From sequence record PP400780: a stretch of DNA of 64,000 bases; one strand, written 5' to 3'. Position numbers and translations under genes: made by a program. This stretch comes from Escherichia phage FL18. Of the stretch, positions 5,214 through 27,340 are shown in pieces; position 1 is the stretch's first letter, and each line of letters starts with the position of its first letter. The notes beneath the pieces are model-generated. The model worked only from the letters and a program-made list of their open reading frames with translations. It did not search any database and was not told the origin of the DNA.

Positions 5214-5525
5214 ATGATTAGTTTTGAGCGGTATGTAGTAGAGAGTTGGAATGGTTTTGATATGTTCGGTAATGACTATTATTTCTATGAATGTAGTCTG
5301 AACCCAAGCTTCTGGGCTGGACGTGAACAAGACCTCGAAGAAATCAACGCTCGTGCCGATTTGTTAGGTGAACTGCCTACGGTTTATTTTACCTTTGATG
5401 AATCCGGCTTCGTTATCCAGGTTTATTTTCCTGAAGAAAACTCTGGTGAGGATTCTGTTAATCCTCCTTATTGGGCTTACCAAGGAATTATTTCTCGTGG
5501 AACAAAACTCGAACTTAAAGAATAA
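5214..5525 (+). CDS. hypothetical protein
   Basis: 103-aa ORF, ATG 2 nt after previous stop. Confidence 0.55.
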   Translation: MISFERYVVESWNGFDMFGNDYYFYECSLNPSFWAGREQDLEEINARADLLGELPTVYFTFDESGFVIQVYFPEENSGEDSVNPPYWAYQGIISRGTKLELKE

Positions 5526-5820
5526 GATTGAAGTCTATGGAATTCCAGATGAAGTAGGTCGTTGTCCTGGATGTCAATCAGTTACAAAACTTCTAAAGGA
5601 GCTCAATGCTCCTTTTACTTTCTATAAAGTTCTTACAAATAATGGTAAGATTGAGTATGATCGTCCACTGATTGTATCTCTTGCTAAACGCGCTGGATTC
5701 ACATCTCTTAACATTCGTTATCCAGTCATTTTCATTAATGATTCTAGACAAAAGAATATTAAACACTTCAAAGAAACTCTCATTTCACTTGGATATGATA
5801 GAGATATCATAGAAGATTAA
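5398..5820 (+). CDS. nrdH: glutaredoxin-like protein (NrdH-like); start uncertain
   Basis: C-terminal ~97 aa form a CPGC redoxin domain (from about 5530); only in-frame ATG/GTG lie 130-160 nt upstream, overlapping ORF 5214..5525. Confidence 0.5.
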   Translation: MNPASLSRFIFLKKTLVRILLILLIGLTKELFLVEQNSNLKNKIEVYGIPDEVGRCPGCQSVTKLLKELNAPFTFYKVLTNNGKIEYDRPLIVSLAKRAGFTSLNIRYPVIFINDSRQKNIKHFKETLISLGYDRDIIED

Positions 5821-5823
5821 GAC

Positions 5824-5846
5824 GGGCCCTCTGGGCCTTTCTTTCT
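5824..5846 (+). terminator. intrinsic terminator-like hairpin
   Basis: GGCCC-TCT-GGGCC stem-loop followed by T-rich tract just after nrdH-like stop. Confidence 0.45.
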
Positions 5847-5918
5847 CACATTCTGTATATTACCATTCTAAGCTATCGTTCCTTTCTTATCATTCCCTAA
5901 AATATTTTTCACAAAGTT

Positions 5919-5949
5919 GTTTACAACGAGCTCAAACCGTGGTATTATT
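5919..5949 (+). promoter_or_regulatory. T4-type early promoter
   Basis: GTTTACA then about 17 nt then TGGTATTAT. Confidence 0.45.
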
Positions 5950-5978
5950 AACATATGAATTGCCTTTGAGGATTTGAT

Positions 5979-6161
5979 ATGGTTGTGGTTGATAAAGAAA
6001 TTAAAAAGGGACAGTATTATCTTATTAATGGTAATGCTGTTCGCGTTACCTACGTAAATGGTTATGATGTTTATTATCTTATACTTAAGTTACATAAACA
6101 CATGATTTGTGACCGTGCTGTATTTAGTTCAGTTGCTAAGGAAATTAAACTCCATGGGTAA
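5979..6161 (+). CDS. hypothetical protein (55.x series)
   Basis: 60-aa ORF, ATG with GAGGA RBS. Confidence 0.45.
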   Translation: MVVVDKEIKKGQYYLINGNAVRVTYVNGYDVYYLILKLHKHMICDRAVFSSVAKEIKLHG

Positions 6162-6447
6162 AACGTATCGTCGTAAAGACTTAAAAGTGCGTGATTATGA
6201 CTATTTCGGAAAGCGTAAAGCTCCTGACGGTGTAAGTCATAAAGATATGGTTGAAAACATTTTTCGCTCAGATAAATGGCGTAGAATGAAAGGTATTGAT
6301 TCAGAAGTTAAAGATGAGTTAAATCGTCAATTACGCGGTGAAGTAAGAAAGTTGAAAAAATCAGTTTACATTGACGATGATTTTGATTATAATACTTCTC
6401 AACGAGTTGCTAAACGTAAATCAAACGAGTGTTATCGTTACAGCTGA
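6154..6447 (+). CDS. hypothetical basic protein (55.x series)
   Basis: 97 aa from internal ATG (MGKTYRRKD); Lys/Arg-rich. Confidence 0.5.
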   Translation: MGKTYRRKDLKVRDYDYFGKRKAPDGVSHKDMVENIFRSDKWRRMKGIDSEVKDELNRQLRGEVRKLKKSVYIDDDFDYNTSQRVAKRKSNECYRYS

Positions 6448-16766: not shown

Positions 16767-19478
16767 ATGAAAGAATTTTACTTAACGGTTGAACAGATTG
16801 GTGATTCAATTTTTGAACGTTACATCGATTCTAATGGCCGTGAACGTACTCGTGAAGTAGAATATAAACCATCACTGTTTGCTCATTGTCCAGAAAGTCA
16901 GGCTACGAAATATTTCGATATCTACGGTAAGCCGTGTACTCGTAAGTTGTTCGCTAATATGCGTGATGCCTCCCAATGGATTAAACGCATGGAAGATATC
17001 GGACTTGAAGCACTTGGCATGGACGATTTCAAATTGGCGTATTTGTCTGACACTTATAACTATGAAATCAAATACGACCATACAAAAATTCGTGTGGCTA
17101 ACTTCGACATCGAAGTAACATCTCCGGATGGGTTCCCTGAGCCATCACAAGCAAAACATCCGATTGATGCTATCACCCATTATGACTCAATTGACGACAG
17201 GTTCTACGTATTTGATCTATTGAATTCTCCATATGGTAATGTAGAAGAATGGTCTATTGAAATCGCTGCTAAGCTTCAAGAACAAGGCGGTGATGAAGTT
17301 CCATCTGAAATTATCGATAAAATCATTTATATGCCGTTCGATAACGAAAAAGAATTGTTGATGGAATATCTCAACTTCTGGCAACAGAAAACTCCTGTCA
17401 TTTTGACTGGATGGAACGTTGAGTCATTCGATATTCCATATGTGTATAACCGAATCAAGAATATTTTTGGCGAATCTACTGCGAAACGTTTATCACCGCA
17501 TCGTAAAACTCGTGTTAAAGTTATCGAAAACATGTATGGTTCTCGTGAAATCATTACATTGTTCGGTATCTCTGTTCTTGATTACATTGACCTTTACAAA
17601 AAATTCTCTTTTACCAATCAACCGTCGTATTCTCTGGATTACATTTCAGAATTTGAATTGAACGTTGGTAAACTGAAATATGATGGCCCTATTTCTAAGC
17701 TTCGTGAAAGCAATCACCAACGATATATAAGCTATAACATCATCGACGTGTATCGTGTATTGCAAATTGATGCTAAGCGTCAGTTCATCAACTTGAGTTT
17801 GGACATGGGTTATTATGCTAAGATACAGATTCAATCTGTGTTTAGCCCAATTAAAACATGGGATGCTATTATTTTTAATAGCCTTAAAGAGCAGAACAAG
17901 GTGATTCCACAAGGTCGTTCTCACCCGGTTCAACCTTATCCCGGCGCTTTTGTTAAGGAACCTATTCCAAATCGATACAAATATGTAATGAGTTTCGACC
18001 TTACATCTCTGTATCCAAGTATTATTCGCCAAGTGAATATTAGCCCGGAAACAATAGCAGGAACGTTTAAAGTAGCTCCATTGCATGATTATATTAACGC
18101 AATCGCTGAACGTCCTTCAGATGTGTACAGTTGCTCTCCTAACGGCATGATGTATTATAAAGACCGTGATGGTGTAGTTCCAACTGAAATCACTAAGGTC
18201 TTTAATCAACGTAAAGAACATAAAGGTTACATGCTTGCAGCTCAACGTAATGGTGAAATAATTAAAGAGGCATTGCATAATCCTAATCTTTCTGTTGACG
18301 AACCATTAGATGTTGATTATCGTTTCGACTTCAGCGATGAGATTAAAGAAAAGATTAAAAAGTTGTCTGCTAAATCTCTTAATGAAATGTTGTTTAGAGC
18401 TCAACGTACTGAAGTTGCAGGTATGACTGCACAAATTAACCGTAAATTGCTTATCAACTCGCTTTATGGTGCACTTGGAAACGTTTGGTTCCGTTATTAC
18501 GATTTGCGTAATGCAACTGCAATCACAACATTCGGGCAAATGGCTTTACAGTGGATTGAACGTAAAGTTAATGAATATCTGAATGAAGTTTGTGGTACAG
18601 AAGGTGAAGCTTTCGTTCTATATGGTGATACAGACTCCATTTATGTATCTGCAGATAAAATTATTGATAAGGTTGGTGAATCTAAATTCCGTGATACCAA
18701 CCATTGGGTAGACTTCTTAGATAAGTTTGCACGTGAACGTATGGAACCTGCTATTGATAGAGGTTTCCGTGAAATGTGCGAATACATGAACAATAAACAA
18801 CACTTAATGTTCATGGACCGAGAAGCTATCGCTGGGCCTCCGCTTGGTTCTAAAGGTATTGGCGGATTTTGGACTGGTAAGAAACGTTATGCATTAAACG
18901 TGTGGGATATGGAAGGTACTCGTTACGCTGAGCCTAAACTCAAAATCATGGGTCTAGAAACTCAGAAATCTTCGACCCCTAAAGCAGTACAGAAAGCTCT
19001 TAAAGAATGTATTCGTCGTATGCTTCAAGAAGGTGAAGAATCATTACAAGAATATTTTAAAGAGTTTGAAAAAGAATTCCGTCAATTGAATTATATTAGC
19101 ATCGCGTCGGTATCTTCTGCGAATAACATTGCTAAATATGACGTAGGTGGATTCCCTGGTCCTAAATGCCCGTTCCATATTCGTGGAATTCTGACATATA
19201 ACCGAGCTATCAAAGGTAATATCGATGCACCACAAGTTGTAGAAGGTGAAAAAGTATATGTTCTGCCTTTACGTGAAGGAAACCCATTCGGTGATAAATG
19301 TATCGCATGGCCTTCTGGTACTGAAATCACAGATTTAATTAAAGACGATGTACTTCATTGGATGGACTACACTGTTCTCCTTGAGAAGACATTTATTAAA
19401 CCACTTGAAGGATTCACATCAGCAGCGAAACTCGATTATGAGAAGAAAGCATCTCTGTTCGATATGTTCGATTTTTGA
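16767..19478 (+). CDS. 43: DNA polymerase gp43 (family B)
   Basis: 903 aa; exonuclease motif FDIE, polymerase motifs SLYPS, NSLYG, YGDTDS. Confidence 0.97.
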   Translation: MKEFYLTVEQIGDSIFERYIDSNGRERTREVEYKPSLFAHCPESQATKYFDIYGKPCTRKLFANMRDASQWIKRMEDIGLEALGMDDFKLAYLSDTYNYEIKYDHTKIRVANFDIEVTSPDGFPEPSQAKHPIDAITHYDSIDDRFYVFDLLNSPYGNVEEWSIEIAAKLQEQGGDEVPSEIIDKIIYMPFDNEKELLMEYLNFWQQKTPVILTGWNVESFDIPYVYNRIKNIFGESTAKRLSPHRKTRVKVIENMYGSREIITLFGISVLDYIDLYKKFSFTNQPSYSLDYISEFELNVGKLKYDGPISKLRESNHQRYISYNIIDVYRVLQIDAKRQFINLSLDMGYYAKIQIQSVFSPIKTWDAIIFNSLKEQNKVIPQGRSHPVQPYPGAFVKEPIPNRYKYVMSFDLTSLYPSIIRQVNISPETIAGTFKVAPLHDYINAIAERPSDVYSCSPNGMMYYKDRDGVVPTEITKVFNQRKEHKGYMLAAQRNGEIIKEALHNPNLSVDEPLDVDYRFDFSDEIKEKIKKLSAKSLNEMLFRAQRTEVAGMTAQINRKLLINSLYGALGNVWFRYYDLRNATAITTFGQMALQWIERKVNEYLNEVCGTEGEAFVLYGDTDSIYVSADKIIDKVGESKFRDTNHWVDFLDKFARERMEPAIDRGFREMCEYMNNKQHLMFMDREAIAGPPLGSKGIGGFWTGKKRYALNVWDMEGTRYAEPKLKIMGLETQKSSTPKAVQKALKECIRRMLQEGEESLQEYFKEFEKEFRQLNYISIASVSSANNIAKYDVGGFPGPKCPFHIRGILTYNRAIKGNIDAPQVVEGEKVYVLPLREGNPFGDKCIAWPSGTEITDLIKDDVLHWMDYTVLLEKTFIKPLEGFTSAAKLDYEKKASLFDMFDF

Positions 19479-19518
19479 TATAATGTCATGGACGGTAAAC
19501 TAATTAAATGAGAGAAAT

Positions 19519-20154
19519 ATGAAAACTACTCCTATTACTATCGCTATTGACGCAATCATAAAACAAGCTTCTTCTTTGGCCGCTATGGCCAAAGTAATTA
19601 GTCAAAACCCTGCTCGTTATAATGCTATTCTAGAAACTCTTCGACGCCCTGGACTTAGTAATTATGAAAGCCGGGTAATTATTACAGGTGTTGGTAAGAA
19701 TGCTAATATCGCAACTAAAGCTTCCGAGACATTTGCTTCACTAGGTATTCCTAGCATGTATTTGAACACTGGGCATTATTCTCACGGTGATGCAGGATTC
19801 ATTGCGCCTAATGATGTGTTGATTCATATTAGTCGTTCTGGTAAGACTGAAGAAATGATAGGTGTTGCTAAACATCTTCGTATGATTCGTCCTCAGGTTA
19901 AACAGATTCTGTTACATTGTAACCCAGACATTCCACAAGAATACGAAGCTCTTTTTGATTATACGTTCTGTACTGGCATCGCGGTAGAGGTTGATGAGAA
20001 TTCTCTGGCTCCGACTATGTCCACTACATTGTTGTTAGCGCTTATCGATACGTTTGCTATCAACCTTTCGTCTGAACGTGGATTTACCTCTAATGATTTC
20101 CTTAAGTTCCATCCAGGCGGTGCACTAGGTGCCATGTTACGAGGCGAACAATGA
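19519..20154 (+). CDS. SIS-domain sugar-phosphate isomerase, arabinose-5-phosphate isomerase-like (KdsD/KpsF N-domain)
   Basis: 211 aa; VIITGVGKNANIATK, HGDAG, HISRSGKTEE, FHPGGALG match the KdsD/GutQ SIS signature; no CBS domains. Confidence 0.8.
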   Translation: MKTTPITIAIDAIIKQASSLAAMAKVISQNPARYNAILETLRRPGLSNYESRVIITGVGKNANIATKASETFASLGIPSMYLNTGHYSHGDAGFIAPNDVLIHISRSGKTEEMIGVAKHLRMIRPQVKQILLHCNPDIPQEYEALFDYTFCTGIAVEVDENSLAPTMSTTLLLALIDTFAINLSSERGFTSNDFLKFHPGGALGAMLRGEQ

Positions 20155-20280
20155 AAGCAATAACAATAGGACTTTTACTATTGATGCTTGTCATGACTAT
20201 CTACTGGAGCTTAACGGCTCCGGTAATGATTCCAACACTTGTAATTGGATGGATTATGATTGGACTACAAGCAAAGTATG

Positions 20281-20307
20281 AATGCTTTAACTAGAATAGT
20301 GTACAAT
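20281..20307 (+). promoter_or_regulatory. MotA-box middle promoter upstream of nucleotidyltransferase-kinase gene
   Basis: AATGCTTTAA box about 19-20 nt upstream of TACAAT -10. Confidence 0.45.
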
Positions 20308-20335
20308 ACTCCTACTTACCAATGAGGACTTTAAC

Positions 20336-22021
20336 ATGAAAAAAGCTGTTATTCTTGGTGCTGGACTGGCAACTCGTTTGTATCCAATAACGCATCATAT
20401 TCCTAAGGTGCTTGTTAACTATAAACAAGATACTATTCTGAGCAATTTGTATACAATTTATTCTGACCTTGGCGCAGATGAAATTATTGTAGTAGTTCAT
20501 TCAAAATTTGCTGAAACTGTTCGAGCTTATTGTGAACAAGAAGGGTTCAATGTGACTATTCGTACAGTTGATGAAGCGTATGGTTCTGCTTATGCTCTTG
20601 CTAAATTACACAAAGATTTAGACGGCCATAATGTAATTGTTAACTGGTGTGATATTATTCCTGATTTTGGTTCATGGTCTTGGAATGTTAACGCAATCTA
20701 TGTTAAGGGTGACGAATGTCGATATAATTTCGACGGTGAAAATATCACTAACGTAGGTTCAACAGGTGGTAATGTTGTAGGAATTTATCAGTTCAAAGAC
20801 TGGGAATTCTATATGGGTTCTACTGATGAGGAAATTCATGAATACTGCAAAGGACGTGATTTCGTAGAATTCCTTTACGGCAGCGCATTCAATAAATCAG
20901 AGCTTATGAATCTAATTGATTTAGGTGATATGCCTAAACTTGAAAAAGCTCATGAAGTTCGTGAACTTAATCGTAGTTTTAATGCAGTTGAAATTGGTGA
21001 AGAAACTGTAACTAAATTCGCATTAACCGAACAGGGTCGAGCTCTTCAGAAAGATGAGATTTCGTGGTATCTTAAAGTGAAATCAGATTCAGTTCCTCAG
21101 TTAGTTTCTGTTAATGAAAATAACTTTGAAATGGAACGCATTAAAGGTAAGCCTGCATTTGAATATATTAAATCCAAATCAAGTCTTGCTCGTCCACAAA
21201 TTGTTGATGCAATTTTAGATGCACTGAAATTCAGCACAGACACTTATTTTGTAAGTCCTGAAACTGTTCGTCGTGATTTCACTAAAGAATTCTATACGAA
21301 AGTTATTGATCGTTGTGAAAGCATTCAACCATTGATTGATTCATTTGGTAAAATCACACATGTGAACTACACTAAGATTGGACGTCTGAAGCCAATGCTG
21401 AAACAAGCTTTAGAACACCTCATTCGTTATCATAACCGTTCTCAGGGACAGTACTCTGTTATTCACGGTGACCCGAACTTCAGTAATACTATGATTACTG
21501 ATAATGGCGAAGTCAAGTTTATCGACCCTCGTGGATATTTTGGTGAAACCAAGATTTACGGGCCAAAATTGTACGATGAAGCTAAAGTGCTTTATGCTGT
21601 TTCAGGTTATGATGAATTCAATGCTAATCCGACCTGGGGGCAGTTTACTATTGATGAAACAACTTGTAATGTGACTATTAACATCAATCCATTAGTTTAC
21701 AAATATAGAAAGATGAGTTCGTTTAACGAGTATCATCATTTGGCAGTGGCAATTATCTGGATTGCATTAGGCGGTTATTTCAAGAATAATCCACTTAAAG
21801 CGGTAGCCGCATATTATAAAGGTATGGAACTTCTGACTAAGCAATTACGTAACATGGGCCGTGTACTTCAGGACGGCTCTATTAGTTATGACGTAGCAGA
21901 ACCTGTAACGGCTACTCTGATTACAAAAAATCCTGGTAAATGGGTACTAACTGATAAAGAAACTGGTGTTTCCTATCGTCCAATCGGTGGCGATATCACT
22001 CATCAATGGGAACGAATCTAA
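20336..22021 (+). CDS. bifunctional sugar-1-phosphate nucleotidyltransferase / APH-fold sugar kinase
   Basis: 561 aa; N-terminal AVILGAGLATRLYPIT nucleotidyltransferase loop; C-terminal HGDPNFSN...FIDPRG phosphotransferase catalytic/Mg loops. Confidence 0.75.
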   Translation: MKKAVILGAGLATRLYPITHHIPKVLVNYKQDTILSNLYTIYSDLGADEIIVVVHSKFAETVRAYCEQEGFNVTIRTVDEAYGSAYALAKLHKDLDGHNVIVNWCDIIPDFGSWSWNVNAIYVKGDECRYNFDGENITNVGSTGGNVVGIYQFKDWEFYMGSTDEEIHEYCKGRDFVEFLYGSAFNKSELMNLIDLGDMPKLEKAHEVRELNRSFNAVEIGEETVTKFALTEQGRALQKDEISWYLKVKSDSVPQLVSVNENNFEMERIKGKPAFEYIKSKSSLARPQIVDAILDALKFSTDTYFVSPETVRRDFTKEFYTKVIDRCESIQPLIDSFGKITHVNYTKIGRLKPMLKQALEHLIRYHNRSQGQYSVIHGDPNFSNTMITDNGEVKFIDPRGYFGETKIYGPKLYDEAKVLYAVSGYDEFNANPTWGQFTIDETTCNVTININPLVYKYRKMSSFNEYHHLAVAIIWIALGGYFKNNPLKAVAAYYKGMELLTKQLRNMGRVLQDGSISYDVAEPVTATLITKNPGKWVLTDKETGVSYRPIGGDITHQWERI

Positions 22022-22407
22022 TGCACCGTGTAGAAAACATGCTTAATCTTTGTTTTGATGTCGATGATTGTATAACAGAGTGGAATAACAATCGTGATTA
22101 CGTGAACTTCAAACCTGACGTCGAAATGGTGTCTGCCATTAATGCCCTGTATGATGCAGGGCATACCATAACGCTTTACACTGCTCGCGGTATGAAGTCA
22201 GTAGGTCCTGGACGTATAGCAATTGACATTCTCCCAAGTCTGATTCAGAACTTGGAAAACATTGGTTTGAAGTACCATAATTTGCTAACACATAAACCAG
22301 TATATGATTGGATTATCGACGACAAAGCTATGCGTCCTGACGAATTCAAAGCTCTTATGAATAAAGGCGAATTCGAAACATTTAAATCGTATAAACCGAA
22401 TCTATAA
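22021..22407 (+). CDS. HAD-superfamily phosphatase (KdsC-like size)
   Basis: 128 aa from ATG overlapping upstream stop (TAATG); HAD motif I CFDVDDCIT. Confidence 0.65.
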   Translation: MHRVENMLNLCFDVDDCITEWNNNRDYVNFKPDVEMVSAINALYDAGHTITLYTARGMKSVGPGRIAIDILPSLIQNLENIGLKYHNLLTHKPVYDWIIDDKAMRPDEFKALMNKGEFETFKSYKPNL

Positions 22408-22463
22408 TAATTTAAGTAAGACCTGCAAAAACCATCGCGTCAATTAACGTGAGATGCAAAAAA

Positions 22464-23624
22464 ATGAATACTTTTAAAATTGGAACGAATTTTGATTTAG
22501 CTCTTCTTGATAAAATCGTAGAGCTCAATAAAACTTATCCTAATAGCTTGATAAACGAAGTATACGGCTCTACAAGAGAAATGGCTTTTGTAGCAGCCAG
22601 ACCTGATTTTAGGCTTCCTGACGTTGACAAAAAGATGTTAGAAGATTACGTTAAACGTTGTAACGAATTAGGTATTTGCTTTAACTATACACTCAACACG
22701 ATAAATCCTGGTTCAAAAAGAGAACTAGTTGAGTGGAAGAAGAAAGCTATTCAGGATTATGTTCAGTATCTTTGGTCAATAGGTGTATGGCGTATTACTA
22801 TCGCTAACCCTGTTGTTATGGAAATTGTTCGTGAAGTCAATAAAGACATTGAGATTGAAGTTTCAACAATTCTACATGTCGATGCTGTAACTCAAATCAA
22901 ATACTTGCATGACCAGTATAATATCAAAAAGGTCTGCTGTGGAATTCATAAGAACCGTTCAGTTTCTTTCCTGAAGCGTGCAGCAGAGTTTTGCAATAAG
23001 AACAATATAATATTTGAAGTTCTTGTAAATGAGTTCTGTTCTAATGCTGGTAAAGGGTATACAACACATTGTAGCTATCGTGACTCTTGCTATATTTTCC
23101 ATAGTACTGATGTTACAGCTGATGATGCTAAATCCTTAAACGGATATCCTATGCAGCACTGTATTAAAGCTCGTGATACAGACCCATTTAACTGGTTGAG
23201 AACTCGTTTTGTTCGTCCTCAAGATTTGAAACTTTATAATGATATTGGTATCACTCAATTCAAAGTTTCAGGACGTACAGGTAGCACAGACTACATTTTG
23301 AAAGTTCTTGAAGCATACGCTTCTGAAAAGTTTGAAGGTAATTTGTTAGAACTGTGGAAGCCTTTAGAGACTATTTTCACTCTTGAAAACGAAACTGAGT
23401 TTTCACATACAGTAAATATTGAAACCTCTTTGTTAGATGGCTTTTTAGAAAAAAGGTGGTTCAGACATCCAGATTTCGATTGTGCTAATGAAATCTGCGG
23501 GACGACGTGTACATATTGTGAAAGATATTATAAACGTCAATTATCTAAAAACGGGTTAGCAGAAAACTCTATATCTATTATTGATATAACTAACTCTGAT
23601 GACGCTTTGAGGTACCCGGAATGA
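22464..23624 (+). CDS. U32-peptidase-family-like protein (TIM-barrel, Cys-rich)
   Basis: 386 aa from first ATG; N-terminal VYGS..FVAAR..NYTLNT resembles U32 barrel; EFCSNAGKGYTTHCSYRDSC cysteine cluster; family assignment tentative. Confidence 0.45.
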   Translation: MNTFKIGTNFDLALLDKIVELNKTYPNSLINEVYGSTREMAFVAARPDFRLPDVDKKMLEDYVKRCNELGICFNYTLNTINPGSKRELVEWKKKAIQDYVQYLWSIGVWRITIANPVVMEIVREVNKDIEIEVSTILHVDAVTQIKYLHDQYNIKKVCCGIHKNRSVSFLKRAAEFCNKNNIIFEVLVNEFCSNAGKGYTTHCSYRDSCYIFHSTDVTADDAKSLNGYPMQHCIKARDTDPFNWLRTRFVRPQDLKLYNDIGITQFKVSGRTGSTDYILKVLEAYASEKFEGNLLELWKPLETIFTLENETEFSHTVNIETSLLDGFLEKRWFRHPDFDCANEICGTTCTYCERYYKRQLSKNGLAENSISIIDITNSDDALRYPE

Positions 23625-23860
23625 TTTCTAGAAAAACTTTTAATCACCAACTTAATGAAGAGATTTTGACTACGAAACTGAACACTAACGAACAAATTCT
23701 TAAAAAGGCCCTTATGGGCCTGTTTGAAACCAAAGCGGCTAAAGTGATTAAAGGACCTGTTCAATTAGAATATTACGCTGATACATTTCTTCATAGTGTT
23801 CTTGGAAGTATCGATGCTGAAGCTTTACGTTATATCAACATTGCCAAGAAATTCAAATAA
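23621..23860 (+). CDS. hypothetical protein (79 aa)
   Basis: ATGA-coupled ORF inside the cassette. Confidence 0.5.
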   Translation: MISRKTFNHQLNEEILTTKLNTNEQILKKALMGLFETKAAKVIKGPVQLEYYADTFLHSVLGSIDAEALRYINIAKKFK

Positions 23861-23883
23861 GCTTTACGAATTGAGTATATAAT
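23859..23883 (+). promoter_or_regulatory. MotA-box middle promoter upstream of hydroxymethylase gene
   Basis: AAGCTTTAC box about 18 nt upstream of TATATAAT. Confidence 0.4.
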
Positions 23884-23902
23884 AAATTGTATTGAGGTAA
23901 AC

Positions 23903-24619
23903 ATGGGGAAACATAACACAATGAAATATATCAAAGCCGCAGATTTTCAAACCGCATTTAAAGCAGTCAATCGTGAAATTTTAGAAAACCCGGAATTCGT
24001 AACTGATTCTCGTATTGGACGTTGTAATGAAATTGGGTCTATGACAGTAGTTGTTGACACTCCATCATCATTCAAAATGACTGACCCACGTATTAACCGC
24101 ATCTCTTATGAATATGCCGAAGACTTCTGGAAGTTTATGATTTCTGGTGGTACCAACGCAGAAGAAGCGTTTAAGGCATATCCTAATGTCGCTAAATTTA
24201 TTTCTAAACCAAAATCAGATGTTTTGCCGGCGAACTTCAATACTTTCTATGGTCCTCGCATTGCGGCCCAATTACCAGCTCTTCTAAAAGAACTTAAAGA
24301 GAAGCCTAACTCTCGAAGAGTTGTGTTCCAAATTCTAGAAAGTTCTGATCAGGCTTTGCTTGATTCGGATGAAACGCTTGAATATCCATGTACTGACTCA
24401 GTGACTTATTATATTCGTGATGGTAAGCTTTATACCCACTGTCATATGCGTTCTCAGAACTGTGCTGTTGTTATGCAGTTGGATTTTTATCTCCAAGGAA
24501 AATTACTTCATTATATCGCTAACGAATGCGGTGTAGAAGTTGGTGATTATACTCATACCATGGTAAGTGCCCATGTGTTTGAACGTGATTTTGATTATGT
24601 TAAAGGATTCCTTGACTAA
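23903..24619 (+). CDS. thymidylate-synthase-fold pyrimidine hydroxymethylase, divergent (gene 42 position; likely dCMP hydroxymethylase)
   Basis: 238 aa; PNSRRVVFQIL, catalytic-Cys context YPCTDSVTYYIRDGKL, MRSQN, HTMVSAHVFERDF align with T4 gp42/TS motifs but overall divergent. Confidence 0.65.
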   Translation: MGKHNTMKYIKAADFQTAFKAVNREILENPEFVTDSRIGRCNEIGSMTVVVDTPSSFKMTDPRINRISYEYAEDFWKFMISGGTNAEEAFKAYPNVAKFISKPKSDVLPANFNTFYGPRIAAQLPALLKELKEKPNSRRVVFQILESSDQALLDSDETLEYPCTDSVTYYIRDGKLYTHCHMRSQNCAVVMQLDFYLQGKLLHYIANECGVEVGDYTHTMVSAHVFERDFDYVKGFLD

Positions 24620-25518
24620 TGGCTATTTTCCGCGTACCAATCTTGAGTATGCGGTCTTATGAAACTGGACAGTATGCTATCCTTAAGGATGGCAACTTCC
24701 AACTTCATTTGCACCGTGCTAATCCGGGTGATGTGATTACATATCCACGTAATGCATCTGATATTAAAGAATGCGAACGTCTTTTCCCAGAATTTAAGTT
24801 TGTTCCATTATGGTATAAAGATAACGCTTATAACACTCGTAAATATTTCTGGTCTGAAAATGAATTTGTGGTTGATTCATTAATTGCTTATTATGATTGC
24901 GATTTTCTAATCACAGATATAACTGGATATGACGGCGCTTTTGATGTAGAATTCAATTTCAATATCACTGCAGACCCTAATAAACCACGTTTTTATATTG
25001 ACGAATTCTTAAAAACCGACATGTTGTCGGTTAATCGTTCAATCCAAACAACTGTGTTGAATGAACGTCAAAAAGAAGTGCTGGTTAACGCAGGTGCAGA
25101 TGGTAATAAGATTATCGTAACGCAGAAAGTTATACGTCCTTCCATCATGCAGCGTCTTGTAGGTGATTTGGCTCCTATTTATCTAGATGGTATTTTTCAT
25201 CCATTTCGAATTAGTGACCCGTGCTATCGTTTTGAACAAGTGGTTGAATGTGCAATTCAATTAGGTCAACCGCTTTATATAACCGATCCAAATAATAGCT
25301 TTGACAGAAATAAGTATCCTGAAGAAGCGTTGATTCGAATTTTTAAACCAACTAAAACTGAGTACTATCAAATTCTTAAAGGACGTCCGAAGATTCAATA
25401 TTTCGAAAATCCTGAAGAGGTATTTCATCCAGGTCTTGGTGAGTTCATCTACTTTAATGCTTTAATTTCTTCACCGTATAATATACCTAAATATGAAGAT
25501 GTCGTAATCGAGGAATAA
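24619..25518 (+). CDS. hypothetical protein at beta-glucosyltransferase locus (candidate DNA sugar transferase)
   Basis: 299 aa; no similarity to T4 beta-gt noticed; function by position only. Confidence 0.5.
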   Translation: MAIFRVPILSMRSYETGQYAILKDGNFQLHLHRANPGDVITYPRNASDIKECERLFPEFKFVPLWYKDNAYNTRKYFWSENEFVVDSLIAYYDCDFLITDITGYDGAFDVEFNFNITADPNKPRFYIDEFLKTDMLSVNRSIQTTVLNERQKEVLVNAGADGNKIIVTQKVIRPSIMQRLVGDLAPIYLDGIFHPFRISDPCYRFEQVVECAIQLGQPLYITDPNNSFDRNKYPEEALIRIFKPTKTEYYQILKGRPKIQYFENPEEVFHPGLGEFIYFNALISSPYNIPKYEDVVIEE

Positions 25519-25519
25519 A

Positions 25520-26068
25520 ATGGCTAAAATTATTTTAGTAGATGGCCCGGATAATGCTGGTAAAACAACTTTCATTAATGACATAATGGAAATTAGTGAA
25601 AGATATGTAAAAATTGATTTCCCTAAACGAACAGTTGATGGACGTTTCGATGTTAAGTCTCGAAATGAAGTTGGCTGTTTTGAAACGATGTTGAATTATT
25701 TAGACCCTACTAAGATTTATCTGTTAGACCGTGGATATATTAGTAACTGGGTTTACGGACGTATTCGACAAGATGCGGACTCGGTTCTTGACGTTTATGA
25801 ACAGGATTATATTCGTCTTTGCCAAAACCATGATGTGTTCACAATTATTTTAACACGTAACGAAATGACTGAAAGTTTTGAAGACGACCTTATTACTTTG
25901 TCTTCATTCGGTTTTAATACAGTCATTTCACATTTTGAAGAGTTTGCAATTCATAACAAAATCCAAACGTATCAATTACTTAATCATGATGGTGCTAACA
26001 AAGTTATAGGATTTAATGCAAGCGAACGTAATGGTTTGATTACAGAAATCATCAAATGGGCTCGTTAA
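25520..26068 (+). CDS. P-loop nucleotide kinase, thymidylate-kinase-like
   Basis: 182 aa; Walker A VDGPDNAGKTT, LLDRGY (DRY/H-like) motif. Confidence 0.65.
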   Translation: MAKIILVDGPDNAGKTTFINDIMEISERYVKIDFPKRTVDGRFDVKSRNEVGCFETMLNYLDPTKIYLLDRGYISNWVYGRIRQDADSVLDVYEQDYIRLCQNHDVFTIILTRNEMTESFEDDLITLSSFGFNTVISHFEEFAIHNKIQTYQLLNHDGANKVIGFNASERNGLITEIIKWAR

Positions 26069-26085
26069 GAGCCATTTAAAGTTTT

Positions 26086-26113
26086 AAATGCTGTATAACC
26101 CTTAGTATATAAT
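26086..26113 (+). promoter_or_regulatory. MotA-box middle promoter upstream of uvsX
   Basis: AATGCTGTA box about 20 nt upstream of TATATAAT. Confidence 0.45.
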
Positions 26114-26167
26114 CATCTTATCTTTTAAACATGAGTAAAATATAATGATGCCTATGGAAAAAATACA

Positions 26168-27340
26168 ATGTCTGATTTAAAATCTCGTCTGATTAAAGCT
26201 TCTACTTCTAAAATGACTGCAGACTTGACTAAGTCTAAGCTGTTTAATAATCGTGATGAAGTCCCTACTCGTATTCCGATGTTGAATATTGCACTAGGTG
26301 GTGCTCTGAATGCAGGATTGCAATCAGGCTTGACTATTTTTGCTGCACCTTCTAAACACTTTAAAACGTTGTTTGGACTGACCATGGTTGCAGCATATAT
26401 GAAGAAATATAAAGATGCAATCTGTTTGTTTTATGACTCAGAATTCGGTGCTTCAGAATCTTATTTTCGTTCAATGGGTGTTGATTTAGACCGTGTAGTT
26501 CATACACCAATTCAGTCAGTCGAACAACTTAAAGTTGATATGACTAATCAGCTTGACGCTATTGAACGCGGTGATAAAGTTATTATCTTTATCGATTCAA
26601 TCGGTAATACTGCATCTAAGAAAGAAACCGAAGATGCATTGAACGAGAAAGTTGTAGGTGATATGTCTCGTGCTAAGGCACTTAAATCTCTTTTCCGTAT
26701 TGTGACTCCTTATCTGACTATTAAAGATATTCCATGTGTTGCAATCAACCATACCGCAATGGAAATTGGTGGATTGTACCCTAAAGAGATTATGGGCGGC
26801 GGTACAGGTATTCTTTACTCGGCTAACACTGTATTCTTTATCTCTAAACGTCAGGTTAAGGATGGCACTGAATTGACCGGTTATGACTTCACGTTGAAAG
26901 CAGAAAAATCTCGTACAGTTAAAGAGAAATCTACTTTCCCAATCACAGTTAATTTTGATGGTGGTATCGACCCATTCAGTGGCTTGTTAGAAATGGCAAC
27001 TGAAATCGGTTTTGTAGTTAAGCCTAAAGCTGGTTGGTATGCTCGTGAATTCCTTGACGAAGAAACAGGTGAAATGATTCGTGAAGAGAAATCATGGCGT
27101 GCTAAAGCTACTGATTGTGTAGAATTCTGGGGTCCTTTGTTTAAACACAAACCTTTCCGAGATGCAATTGAAACTAAATATAAACTAGGTGCTATCTCTT
27201 CTATTAAAGAAGTTGATGACGCTGTTAATGACCTTATTAATTGCAAAGCAACAACTAAAGTTCCGGTTAAAACTTCTGATGCTCCGTCTGCAGCAGATAT
27301 AGAAAACGACCTTGACGAAATGGAAGATTTCGATGAATAA
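26168..27340 (+). CDS. uvsX: RecA-like recombinase UvsX
   Basis: 390 aa, close match to T4 UvsX as recalled (MSDLKSRLIKASTSK..., acidic C-terminus). Confidence 0.95.
   Translation: MSDLKSRLIKASTSKMTADLTKSKLFNNRDEVPTRIPMLNIALGGALNAGLQSGLTIFAAPSKHFKTLFGLTMVAAYMKKYKDAICLFYDSEFGASESYFRSMGVDLDRVVHTPIQSVEQLKVDMTNQLDAIERGDKVIIFIDSIGNTASKKETEDALNEKVVGDMSRAKALKSLFRIVTPYLTIKDIPCVAINHTAMEIGGLYPKEIMGGGTGILYSANTVFFISKRQVKDGTELTGYDFTLKAEKSRTVKEKSTFPITVNFDGGIDPFSGLLEMATEIGFVVKPKAGWYAREFLDEETGEMIREEKSWRAKATDCVEFWGPLFKHKPFRDAIETKYKLGAISSIKEVDDAVNDLINCKATTKVPVKTSDAPSAADIENDLDEMEDFDE

Follow-up and report, generated by a model that had tools for sequence, protein, structure and literature searches.

A divergent U32-family TIM-barrel protein in the DNA-modification cassette of an RB69-like phage is a candidate oxygen-independent, prephenate-dependent pyrimidine hydroxylase

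The characterised enzymes of the U32 family form 5-hydroxycytidine (ho5C), 5-hydroxyuridine (ho5U) and hydroxylated quinones without O2, and they need prephenate for these reactions (PMC5727448, PMC6599085, PMC10990095). RlhA (YdcP), the 5-hydroxycytidine-2501 synthase of Escherichia coli 23S rRNA, and TrhP (YegQ) both require prephenate, which has been demonstrated to be the oxygen donor for UbiU/UbiV, and a chorismate mutase domain expressed alone restores the activities of all of them (PMC5727448, PMC10990095). The hallmark of U32 oxidases is a set of four Cys residues with the spacing CX6CX15CX3C that binds a [4Fe-4S] cluster (PMC11574389). Here we describe a U32-family gene of Escherichia phage FL18 (PP400780), which lies in the DNA-modification cassette of a stretch of 64,000 nucleotides, in the following termed the window. 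A preliminary description had proposed that its product is an Fe-S enzyme that hydroxylates a base or nucleotide of the phage DNA independently of O2, and as far as computation reaches the gene context supports this proposal. From our analysis we consider it fairly probable that the protein hydroxylates pyrimidines at C5 without O2 and in a prephenate-dependent manner, the likely reaction being the conversion of deoxycytidine monophosphate (dCMP) to 5-hydroxy-dCMP.

The cassette was first tied to arabinosylated DNA in RB69 (PMC6024577). Its product is mono- and di-arabinosylated 5-hydroxycytosine (5hoC), derivatives of which replace C in RB69 DNA, and the thymidylate synthase (TS) homolog gp48 is a flavoenzyme that puts the 5-OH group on dCMP with oxygen taken from O2 (PMC13326640). 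The window derives from an RB69-like T4-type phage (Mosigvirus): over the 6.8 kb that run from gene 43 to uvsX it shares 99.5% identity with Escherichia phage JM17 and ~98% with many Mosigviruses. The TS homolog of the window, which the preliminary description had taken for a pyrimidine hydroxymethylase, is identical to RB69 gp48 at 236 of 238 positions and is thus to be read as the flavin- and O2-dependent dCMP 5-hydroxylase (PMC13326640). Its segment HMRSQNCAVVMQLD shows the signature D169N and N177D in a gap-free reading that starts at R166-S167 of E. coli ThyA; the alignment made automatically by MAFFT is offset here. The U32 protein has a different fold and does not belong to this class of TS-like 5-hydroxy-dCMP synthases, of which the gp48 homolog is the member in the window and DLP3 gp80 and the HY126 enzyme are further representatives. 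By hypothesis both enzymes of the cluster yield the same product, but the gp48 type has a thymidylate synthase fold, uses flavin and O2, contains no Cys clusters and is experimentally proven, while a hydroxylase function of the U32 protein is deduced from the evidence given below.

The open reading frame (ORF) extends from 22449 to 23624 on the plus strand, and the ATG at 22464 is the likely start because the equivalent MNTFK forms the start of all homologs. This is the same 386-amino-acid (aa) product as described before, with all motifs quoted for it, EVYGS, FVAAR, GICFNYTLNT and EFCSNAGKGYTTHCSYRDSC (residues 190-209), and 384 of its 386 residues are identical to RB69p050. Its tentative placement in the U32 family held: residues 94-286 align to positions 2-192 of the 233 positions of the Pfam profile PF01136 (E=7.3e-11, 42.2 bits at a gathering score of 22.4), and a precomputed PF01136 hit is present in most members of the clade. 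A confident AlphaFold2 model built on 36 relatives (predicted local distance difference test score 90.4) has a beta/alpha barrel and, behind it, a helical tail rich in Cys. The top structural match is Mk0906 of Methanopyrus kandleri (PDB 5D88), a U32 'peptidase' domain of 247 residues with 11-14% identity that lacks the C-terminal Cys-rich extension. Judged by the Pfam match, the U32 assignment is not due to chance. Indeed, RB69ORF050c was flagged 'Peptidase family U32' already in 2006 (PMC1524935). Database names such as 'peptidase' and 'collagenase-like protease' point to a true proteolytic enzyme, but this is hardly credible: the name is of historical origin, U32 'peptidases' have no known catalytic mechanism (PMC5727448), and both the invariant Cys clusters and the nucleotide-metabolism context speak against proteolysis.

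Within the family the phage protein stands apart. A PDB sequence search with it gave no meaningful match, the NCBIfam UbiU model NF047963 reached 18.5 bits at a cut-off of 440, the TrhP model was not significant, and alignment of the clade profile to the single E. coli UbiU and TrhP sequences by hhalign gave uninformative probabilities of 5-8%. On the NCBIfam scores the phage U32 protein is not an ortholog of any characterised U32 enzyme. A search of 1.84 billion proteins with the clade profile retrieved only 1667 clusters, 465 of them at E<=1e-30, which suggests that the clade, with a size of about 1,100-1,700 clusters at 50% identity, stands apart from mainstream U32 proteins. The gene belongs to a divergent, largely phage-borne clade of the U32 Fe-S TIM-barrel family.

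A close comparison is offered by RlhA, with which the phage protein shares the U32 TIM-barrel core and, by proposal, the chemistry (ho5C formation), which in RlhA depends on prephenate and Fe-S biogenesis. Overall similarity is marginal (hidden Markov model (HMM) match of ~9 bits), and RlhA is a 653-aa protein with a DUF3656 domain that acts on pre-50S rRNA, whereas the phage protein consists of a single domain of 386 aa. TrhP and UbiU/UbiV belong to the same family and follow the same proposed logic, in which an anaerobic Fe-S/prephenate enzyme doubles an O2-dependent hydroxylase, but they are cellular rather than viral enzymes, are not orthologous to the phage protein and act on tRNA U34 and on polyprenyl-phenols, UbiU/UbiV as a heterodimer that works with UbiT. 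Because the only characterised U32 enzymes acting on nucleic acids modify RNA, the phage protein could be conceived as an RNA hydroxylase like TrhP or RlhA that tunes translation during infection by modifying phage or host tRNA or rRNA; T4-like phages do encode tRNAs. We regard this as very improbable, since scores far below the NCBIfam cut-offs for TrhP and UbiU argue against orthology, the C-terminal domains of TrhP and RlhA are missing, and in unrelated phages the gene is placed among DNA-modification genes and inherited together with them.

Ten Cys residues (C158, C177, C192, C203, C209, C233, C340, C345, C349 and C352) are invariant among 36 relatives with identities down to 46%. The preliminary description had spoken of four Cys residues; the count falls short of the ten, which include a second, C-terminal four-Cys cluster. 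Among 129 more distant representatives, C192 is retained in 98%, C233 in 100% and the C-terminal four in 78-88%, and K267 and R271 of the KVSGRTG motif are retained in all 129. In the alignment made by eye, NEFC192 lies opposite GALC169/170 of RlhA, TrhP and UbiU, the profile alignment places DSC209YIFH on GQC176YISH of RlhA, and the HMM alignment matches FKVSGRTG to FKIEGR(xK) of RlhA, TrhP and UbiU. C169 and C176 of RlhA are essential for 5-hydroxycytidine formation, for which Cys residues in its C-terminal region are additionally required (PMC5727448). A Cys cluster near the U32 signature, as claimed before, is therefore confirmed in its position, C192 and C209 being the aligned counterparts of the first two canonical residues, but not in its spacing: C-x10-C-x5-C-x23-C replaces CX6CX15CX3C, which weighs against membership in the described U32 oxidases. 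UbiU and UbiV likewise depart from the canonical spacing, and four invariant Cys residues in the same region make an Fe-S cluster plausible, so that the core region may be regarded as a candidate [4Fe-4S] site. The compact C-terminal CX4CX3CX2C tail is probably a second metal or Fe-S site, and this extra cluster may point to a two-cluster mechanism unlike that of RlhA, TrhP and UbiUV. The spacing C345-x3-C349-x2-C352, with a Tyr before the last Cys and the fourth Cys (C340) ahead, resembles the radical-SAM (S-adenosylmethionine) pattern CX3CXYC. Membership in this superfamily was rejected, since the cluster lies beyond the barrel and not after its first strand and the Pfam scan of the U32 protein gave no Radical_SAM (PF04055) match.

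Prephenate is the product of chorismate mutase, and in most relatives outside Mosigvirus a chorismate mutase gene lies immediately 3' of the U32 gene. In Enterobacter phage Entb_45 an AroQ-type gene overlaps the U32 stop codon (Pfam CM_2, 40.9 bits at a cut-off of 27), and a chorismate mutase gene also follows in Tegunavirus TG1, Thanatos, Marfavirus P545, Winklervirus LC53 and others. In four of these five phages the two genes are directly adjacent, while TG1 has a small homolog of the 79-aa ORF of the window between them. In Thanatos, U32 and chorismate mutase are found elsewhere in the cluster but still together, having moved as a pair. The chorismate mutase was found in 56 phage records, and the positions corresponding to R11, R28, K39, S84 and Q88 of the E. 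coli enzyme, which we take to be its active-site residues, are invariant in the alignment of the phage proteins. Among 50 loci anchored on the TS-like gene, chorismate mutase occurred in 13 of the 15 with U32 and in none of the 35 without it. This implies that chorismate mutase tracks U32 and not the sugar pathway; in the loci examined it was never seen without U32.

Outside Straboviridae, 13 of 40 U32 loci adjoin a chorismate mutase, a 3-deoxy-D-arabino-heptulosonate 7-phosphate (DAHP) synthase or a fusion of both. Fusions of DAHP synthase with a C-terminal AroQ chorismate mutase stand beside U32 on five phage or metagenome-assembled genome (MAG) contigs (L045:8399-9430, L048:7290-8354, L049:8323-9384, L059:11076-12194 and L158:6922-7956). 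In L049 and L158 both Pfam domains score above cut-off, and the other three fusions were identified with HMMs that we built ourselves. In L012 and L034 the DAHP synthase is an unfused protein. Virus-borne enzymes for the entry and the branch point of the shikimate pathway seem to be unusual auxiliary genes. A 3-deoxy-D-manno-octulosonate 8-phosphate (KDO-8-P) synthase, which would have tied the DAHP_synth_1 neighbour to arabinose 5-phosphate, was rejected, because DAHP synthase models scored 216-237 bits and the KDO8PS model 63 bits and because several copies are fused to a chorismate mutase domain.

The second line of evidence is the complementary occurrence of U32 and the O2-dependent TS-like hydroxylase, determined by searching the retrieved loci locally with HMMs. 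Of the metagenomic relatives (~50% identical), about half are located in phage replication and nucleotide modules with genes for a DnaE-type polymerase, dUTPase/MazG, a thymidylate kinase (Tmk)-like kinase, dCMP deaminase and a uracil-DNA glycosylase-like protein. At many of these loci U32 is overlapped by a full-length homolog of the glycosyltransferase of the window (E 1e-8 to 1e-15), and in L012 glycosyltransferase, SIS, AfhE-like, U32 and DAHP synthase genes follow in a row. All 15 U32-anchored loci of Straboviridae contained both the TS-like gene and the glycosyltransferase, while among the 40 from outside Straboviridae none had a TS of the 5-hydroxy-dCMP synthase type within 10 kb, 28 had the glycosyltransferase and 17 the AfhE-like gene. 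The TS model is sensitive enough to detect E. coli ThyA. Of 36 loci anchored on the glycosyltransferase, 15 held TS and U32, 15 TS only and five U32 only, and the single locus with neither was a 4.4-kb fragment. The contig sets with U32 and TS-like peptide patterns overlap only in enterobacterial Straboviridae, and the U32-only set has no contig in common with the TS-like set. Read most simply, both U32 and the TS-like enzyme would supply the glycosyltransferase with a 5-hydroxylated pyrimidine.

These distributions also bear on an enzyme of the sugar pathway, or a 'sugar or heterocycle reductase' that would reduce the arabinose donor or the base. Such a role is suggested by the location of the gene between UDP-arabinose genes and base-modifying genes and by the many TIM-barrel sugar enzymes among the weaker fold hits, and the reductase label itself comes from Lee et al. 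2026, whose Table 1 gives it tentatively to RB69p050 because of the match to 5D88. This table entry is the only mention of the protein there; RNA hydroxylation pathways are mentioned separately, unconnected to gp50. However, no reductase activity is known for 5D88, chorismate mutase and DAHP synthase linkage makes no sense for sugar reduction, and five loci pair U32 with the glycosyltransferase and have no sugar-activation genes nearby. Moreover, RB69, which has U32, and DLP3, which has not, share D-arabinofuranosyl-5hoC (PMC13326640). U32 is thus not needed for a distinct sugar chemistry, and the identity of the modification with or without it fits a redundant, condition-specific role, which leaves a sugar or reductase function quite improbable.

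Chorismate or prephenate might also be used otherwise, for a cofactor or small molecule needed in infection or for another base modification. Carboxy-SAM, which one phage is reported to use for carboxymethylcytosine (PMC12783734), likewise derives from prephenate, and the radical-SAM-like spacing of the second Cys cluster hints at chemistry beyond that of known U32 enzymes. We give this only a small chance, as no conserved CmoA-like or methyltransferase partner was found, the tightest conserved partner is a glycosyltransferase proposed to need a 5-OH acceptor, and U32 and the TS-like hydroxylase substitute for each other.

The same chemistry on another substrate, namely deoxycytidine triphosphate (dCTP), C in newly made DNA, or deoxyuridine monophosphate (dUMP) or uracil instead of dCMP, appears unlikely, although several loci argue in its favour. 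RlhA and TrhP act on polynucleotides, and some clade members directly follow a dCMP deaminase, which makes dUMP, with no glycosyltransferase nearby. This is the case on megaphage-like contigs, one of 466 kb (L001:9447-11086 and L014:7504-9083), where the dCMP deaminase lies directly upstream of U32, overlapping it in L001, and a conserved protein of ~250 aa is encoded downstream. At such loci the base may be U, and the product might be a 5-hydroxyuracil nucleotide rather than 5hoC. On the 230-kb jumbo-phage contig L036, which also carries U32 and an AfhE-like enzyme, a canonical ThyA-like gene (5491-6357) is located a short way upstream of the glycosyltransferase, so that U32 is accompanied there by a TS homolog of the dUMP type. 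This homolog retains D169 and N177, has C168 changed to G, and is the sole TS-family gene in the 40 U32 loci outside Straboviridae. It may be either an ordinary thymidylate synthase or an enzyme that hydroxymethylates dUMP. Against another substrate stand the single 386-aa domain with its Cys tail, which lacks a nucleic-acid-binding domain like those of RlhA and TrhP, the Tmk-like kinases and dUTPase/MazG-type enzymes that recur at U32 loci and are typical of modification at the nucleotide level, and the presence of 5hoC derivatives in place of C in RB69 DNA.

Besides these loci and the unconventional Cys spacing, several further points weigh against a prephenate-dependent dCMP hydroxylase. 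No U32 hydroxylase has yet been reconstituted in vitro (PMC10990095). The clade profile seems not to reach mainstream U32 proteins, the identity of the weak hits being unchecked. Mosigvirus, the lineage of the window, has no chorismate mutase, and tblastn found none in the window; these phages would depend on the host PheA/TyrA. Dhakaviruses, whose hosts are E. coli and Salmonella, possess only the TS-like route, so a facultatively anaerobic host does not make U32 obligatory. The absence of TS-like genes was judged within ~10 kb and by peptide-pattern scans, and the loci are not phylogenetically independent, though they comprise at least four distinct chorismate mutase/DAHP synthase architectures. 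Full-text searches revealed no link between phage U32, chorismate mutase or prephenate and 5hoC, with two relevant papers outside their coverage. In the accessible literature these searches found no function assigned to the gp50 ortholog, and the Thanatos paper does not discuss its U32 ortholog. The gene and its U32 label were thus already known, while to our knowledge the function proposed here has not been described in the accessible literature.

Host range was compared with the oxygen lifestyle of the hosts. Among isolated phages U32 was found in 221 records, all with Enterobacterales or Shewanella hosts. All matches are at least 80% identical and belong to Straboviridae, RB69-like and others, of enterobacteria or Shewanella. 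The gene is missing from T4-type phages, in line with the earlier remark that no U32 homolog is known from T4. The sugar-activating enzyme occurs in 368 phage records, 57 of them from Acinetobacter phages. In the Acinetobacter phage loci examined the phosphatase is directly followed by the TS-like gene, with neither U32 nor chorismate mutase, and Acinetobacter is not among the listed U32 hosts. When one genome per species was scanned, the clade turned up in MAGs or isolates of Phocaeicola faecalis, Tannerella, Romboutsia, Oscillospiraceae, Erysipelotrichales, Gastranaerophilaceae and a few uncultured lineages. These genomic carriers are anaerobes; their loci contain no TS-like gene, and several contain chorismate mutase and the glycosyltransferase. 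This distribution over anaerobes and facultative anaerobes, apparently sparing Acinetobacter phages, is consistent with an O2-independent reaction.

In the mechanism that we propose for hydroxylation of dCMP, the barrel would bind a [4Fe-4S] cluster via C192, C209, C233 and probably C203, and the four C-terminal Cys residues would hold a second cluster or metal. Prephenate, from the host PheA/TyrA or the phage chorismate mutase, would give its C4 oxygen to C5 of dCMP, the resulting 5-hydroxy-dCMP would be converted to the triphosphate by the dedicated kinase and host enzymes, and 5-hydroxycytosine would enter the DNA and then be arabinosylated. In air the flavin enzyme gp48 performs the same job, and U32 would provide a parallel anaerobic route, much as TrhO is paired with TrhP and UbiI,H,F with UbiU,V in bacteria.

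Since phages whose DNA contains 5hoC destroy normal dCTP or exclude it, they need 5-hydroxy-dCMP wherever they replicate. The sole known 5-hydroxy-dCMP synthase requires O2, yet these phages infect Enterobacterales of the gut, and the cluster has relatives in phages of strict anaerobes. If correct, our proposal would explain the synthesis of hypermodified DNA in anoxic habitats, extend the principle of paired aerobic and anaerobic hydroxylases from bacterial RNA and quinone metabolism to viral DNA, and assign a function to a sizeable clade. We see roughly even chances that this is the first virus-encoded U32 hydroxylase and the first to act on a free nucleotide (dCMP, with prephenate as oxygen donor), and that it is the sole source of 5-hydroxypyrimidine for phages of obligate anaerobes. 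How prephenate-dependent enzymes transfer the oxygen is still an open question (PMC10990095), and small, soluble substrates would make a first in vitro reconstitution of such a hydroxylation possible. For phage therapy and the engineering of RB69-like phages, DNA protection may hinge on oxygen and on host aromatic amino-acid metabolism.

The features of the cassette between the DNA polymerase gene and uvsX are compiled in Table 1.

Table 1. Positions of the modification-cassette genes and of the U32 sequence motifs in the window
Feature	Position	Strand	Basis
SIS-domain arabinose-5-phosphate isomerase (RB69 gp55)	19519..20154	+	Pfam SIS, phrog_5670, PMC13326640
Bifunctional sugar kinase/nucleotidyltransferase (AfhE-like, RB69 gp52:53), makes UDP (uridine diphosphate)-arabinose	20336..22021	+	Pfam NTP_transferase and kinase-like matches; PMC13326640, PMC6024577
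HAD-type phosphatase (AfhF-like, RB69 gp51)	22006..22407	+	phrog_1238, PMC13326640
U32-family Fe-S-type TIM-barrel protein, 386 aa, RB69 gp50 ortholog	22464..23624	+	
Core Cys region C192-x10-C203-x5-C209-x23-C233, candidate [4Fe-4S] site at the U32 motif position	23037..23162	+	
KVSGRTG motif, counterpart of U32 'KIEGR'	23262..23282	+	translation, alignment
C-terminal cluster C340-x4-C345-x3-C349-x2-C352 (CANEICGTTCTYC)	23481..23519	+	translation
79-aa ORF, RB69ORF049c family, phrog_8601	23621..23860	+	PHROG match
Thymidylate synthase homolog, flavin/O2-dependent 5-hydroxy-dCMP synthase	23903..24619	+	RB69 gp48 identity
Glycosyltransferase (RB69 gp46:47, proposed 'arabinosyltransferase 1')	24619..25518	+	phrog_3891
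Thymidylate-kinase-like nucleotide kinase (RB69 gp45)	25520..26068	+	phrog_761, PMC13326640 Table 1

The Tmk-like kinase is presumed to phosphorylate the modified deoxynucleoside monophosphate, and the glycosyltransferase is the putative enzyme that places the first arabinose on the 5-OH group (PMC13326640). The 561-aa sugar-activating enzyme and the 299-aa glycosyltransferase are intact single ORFs in the window. The RB69 reference record splits both (ORF052/053 and ORF046/047), which the literature attributes to sequencing errors. Positions 19400-26200 of the window (6801 bp) align to JM17 (PP400779.1), the closest record, in two pieces that span 7501 bp there; since JM17 is longer and has a GIY-YIG homing endonuclease annotated at this place, the window apparently lacks an insertion of ~700 bp.

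The ATG of the 79-aa ORF overlaps the stop codon of the U32 gene (ATGA), which suggests translational coupling. The ORF encodes no Cys, has no Pfam or NCBIfam match, and belongs to a family present in Mosigvirus, Tegunavirus, PM2 and a few others. Mosigviruses have it at the place that chorismate mutase takes in other genera. A diverged chorismate mutase was rejected, as BLASTP revealed no similarity to the phage chorismate mutases and genuine chorismate mutase genes are present alongside the ORF in TG1, PM2 and others; hhalign gave a probability of 0.3%, in a comparison with a poor template alignment.

Two paralogs of the U32 clade, ~22% identical to each other, were found in L002:10001-16360 and also in L003 and L156. 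The L002 contig, which contains dockerin and GH43 genes, is probably an anaerobic Clostridia genome or prophage. The paralogs are accompanied there by a radical SAM/SPASM protein, a 5'-nucleotidase (NT5C), a deoxynucleoside kinase, a PnuC-like transporter and a nucleoside deoxyribosyltransferase, a context that looks like nucleoside salvage and not like a phage replication module. Radical SAM/SPASM proteins were rejected as a conserved partner of the clade, being present at only 3 of 40 loci.

A spacer of 42 bp (23862-23902) separates the 79-aa ORF from the TS homolog. It contains the T4-late-promoter-like element TATATAATAAAT and a GAGG ribosome-binding site, on account of which the TS-like hydroxylase may be transcribed apart from the pair formed by U32 and the 79-aa ORF. 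A TATAAT-like element is located upstream of the U32 gene, at ~22403.

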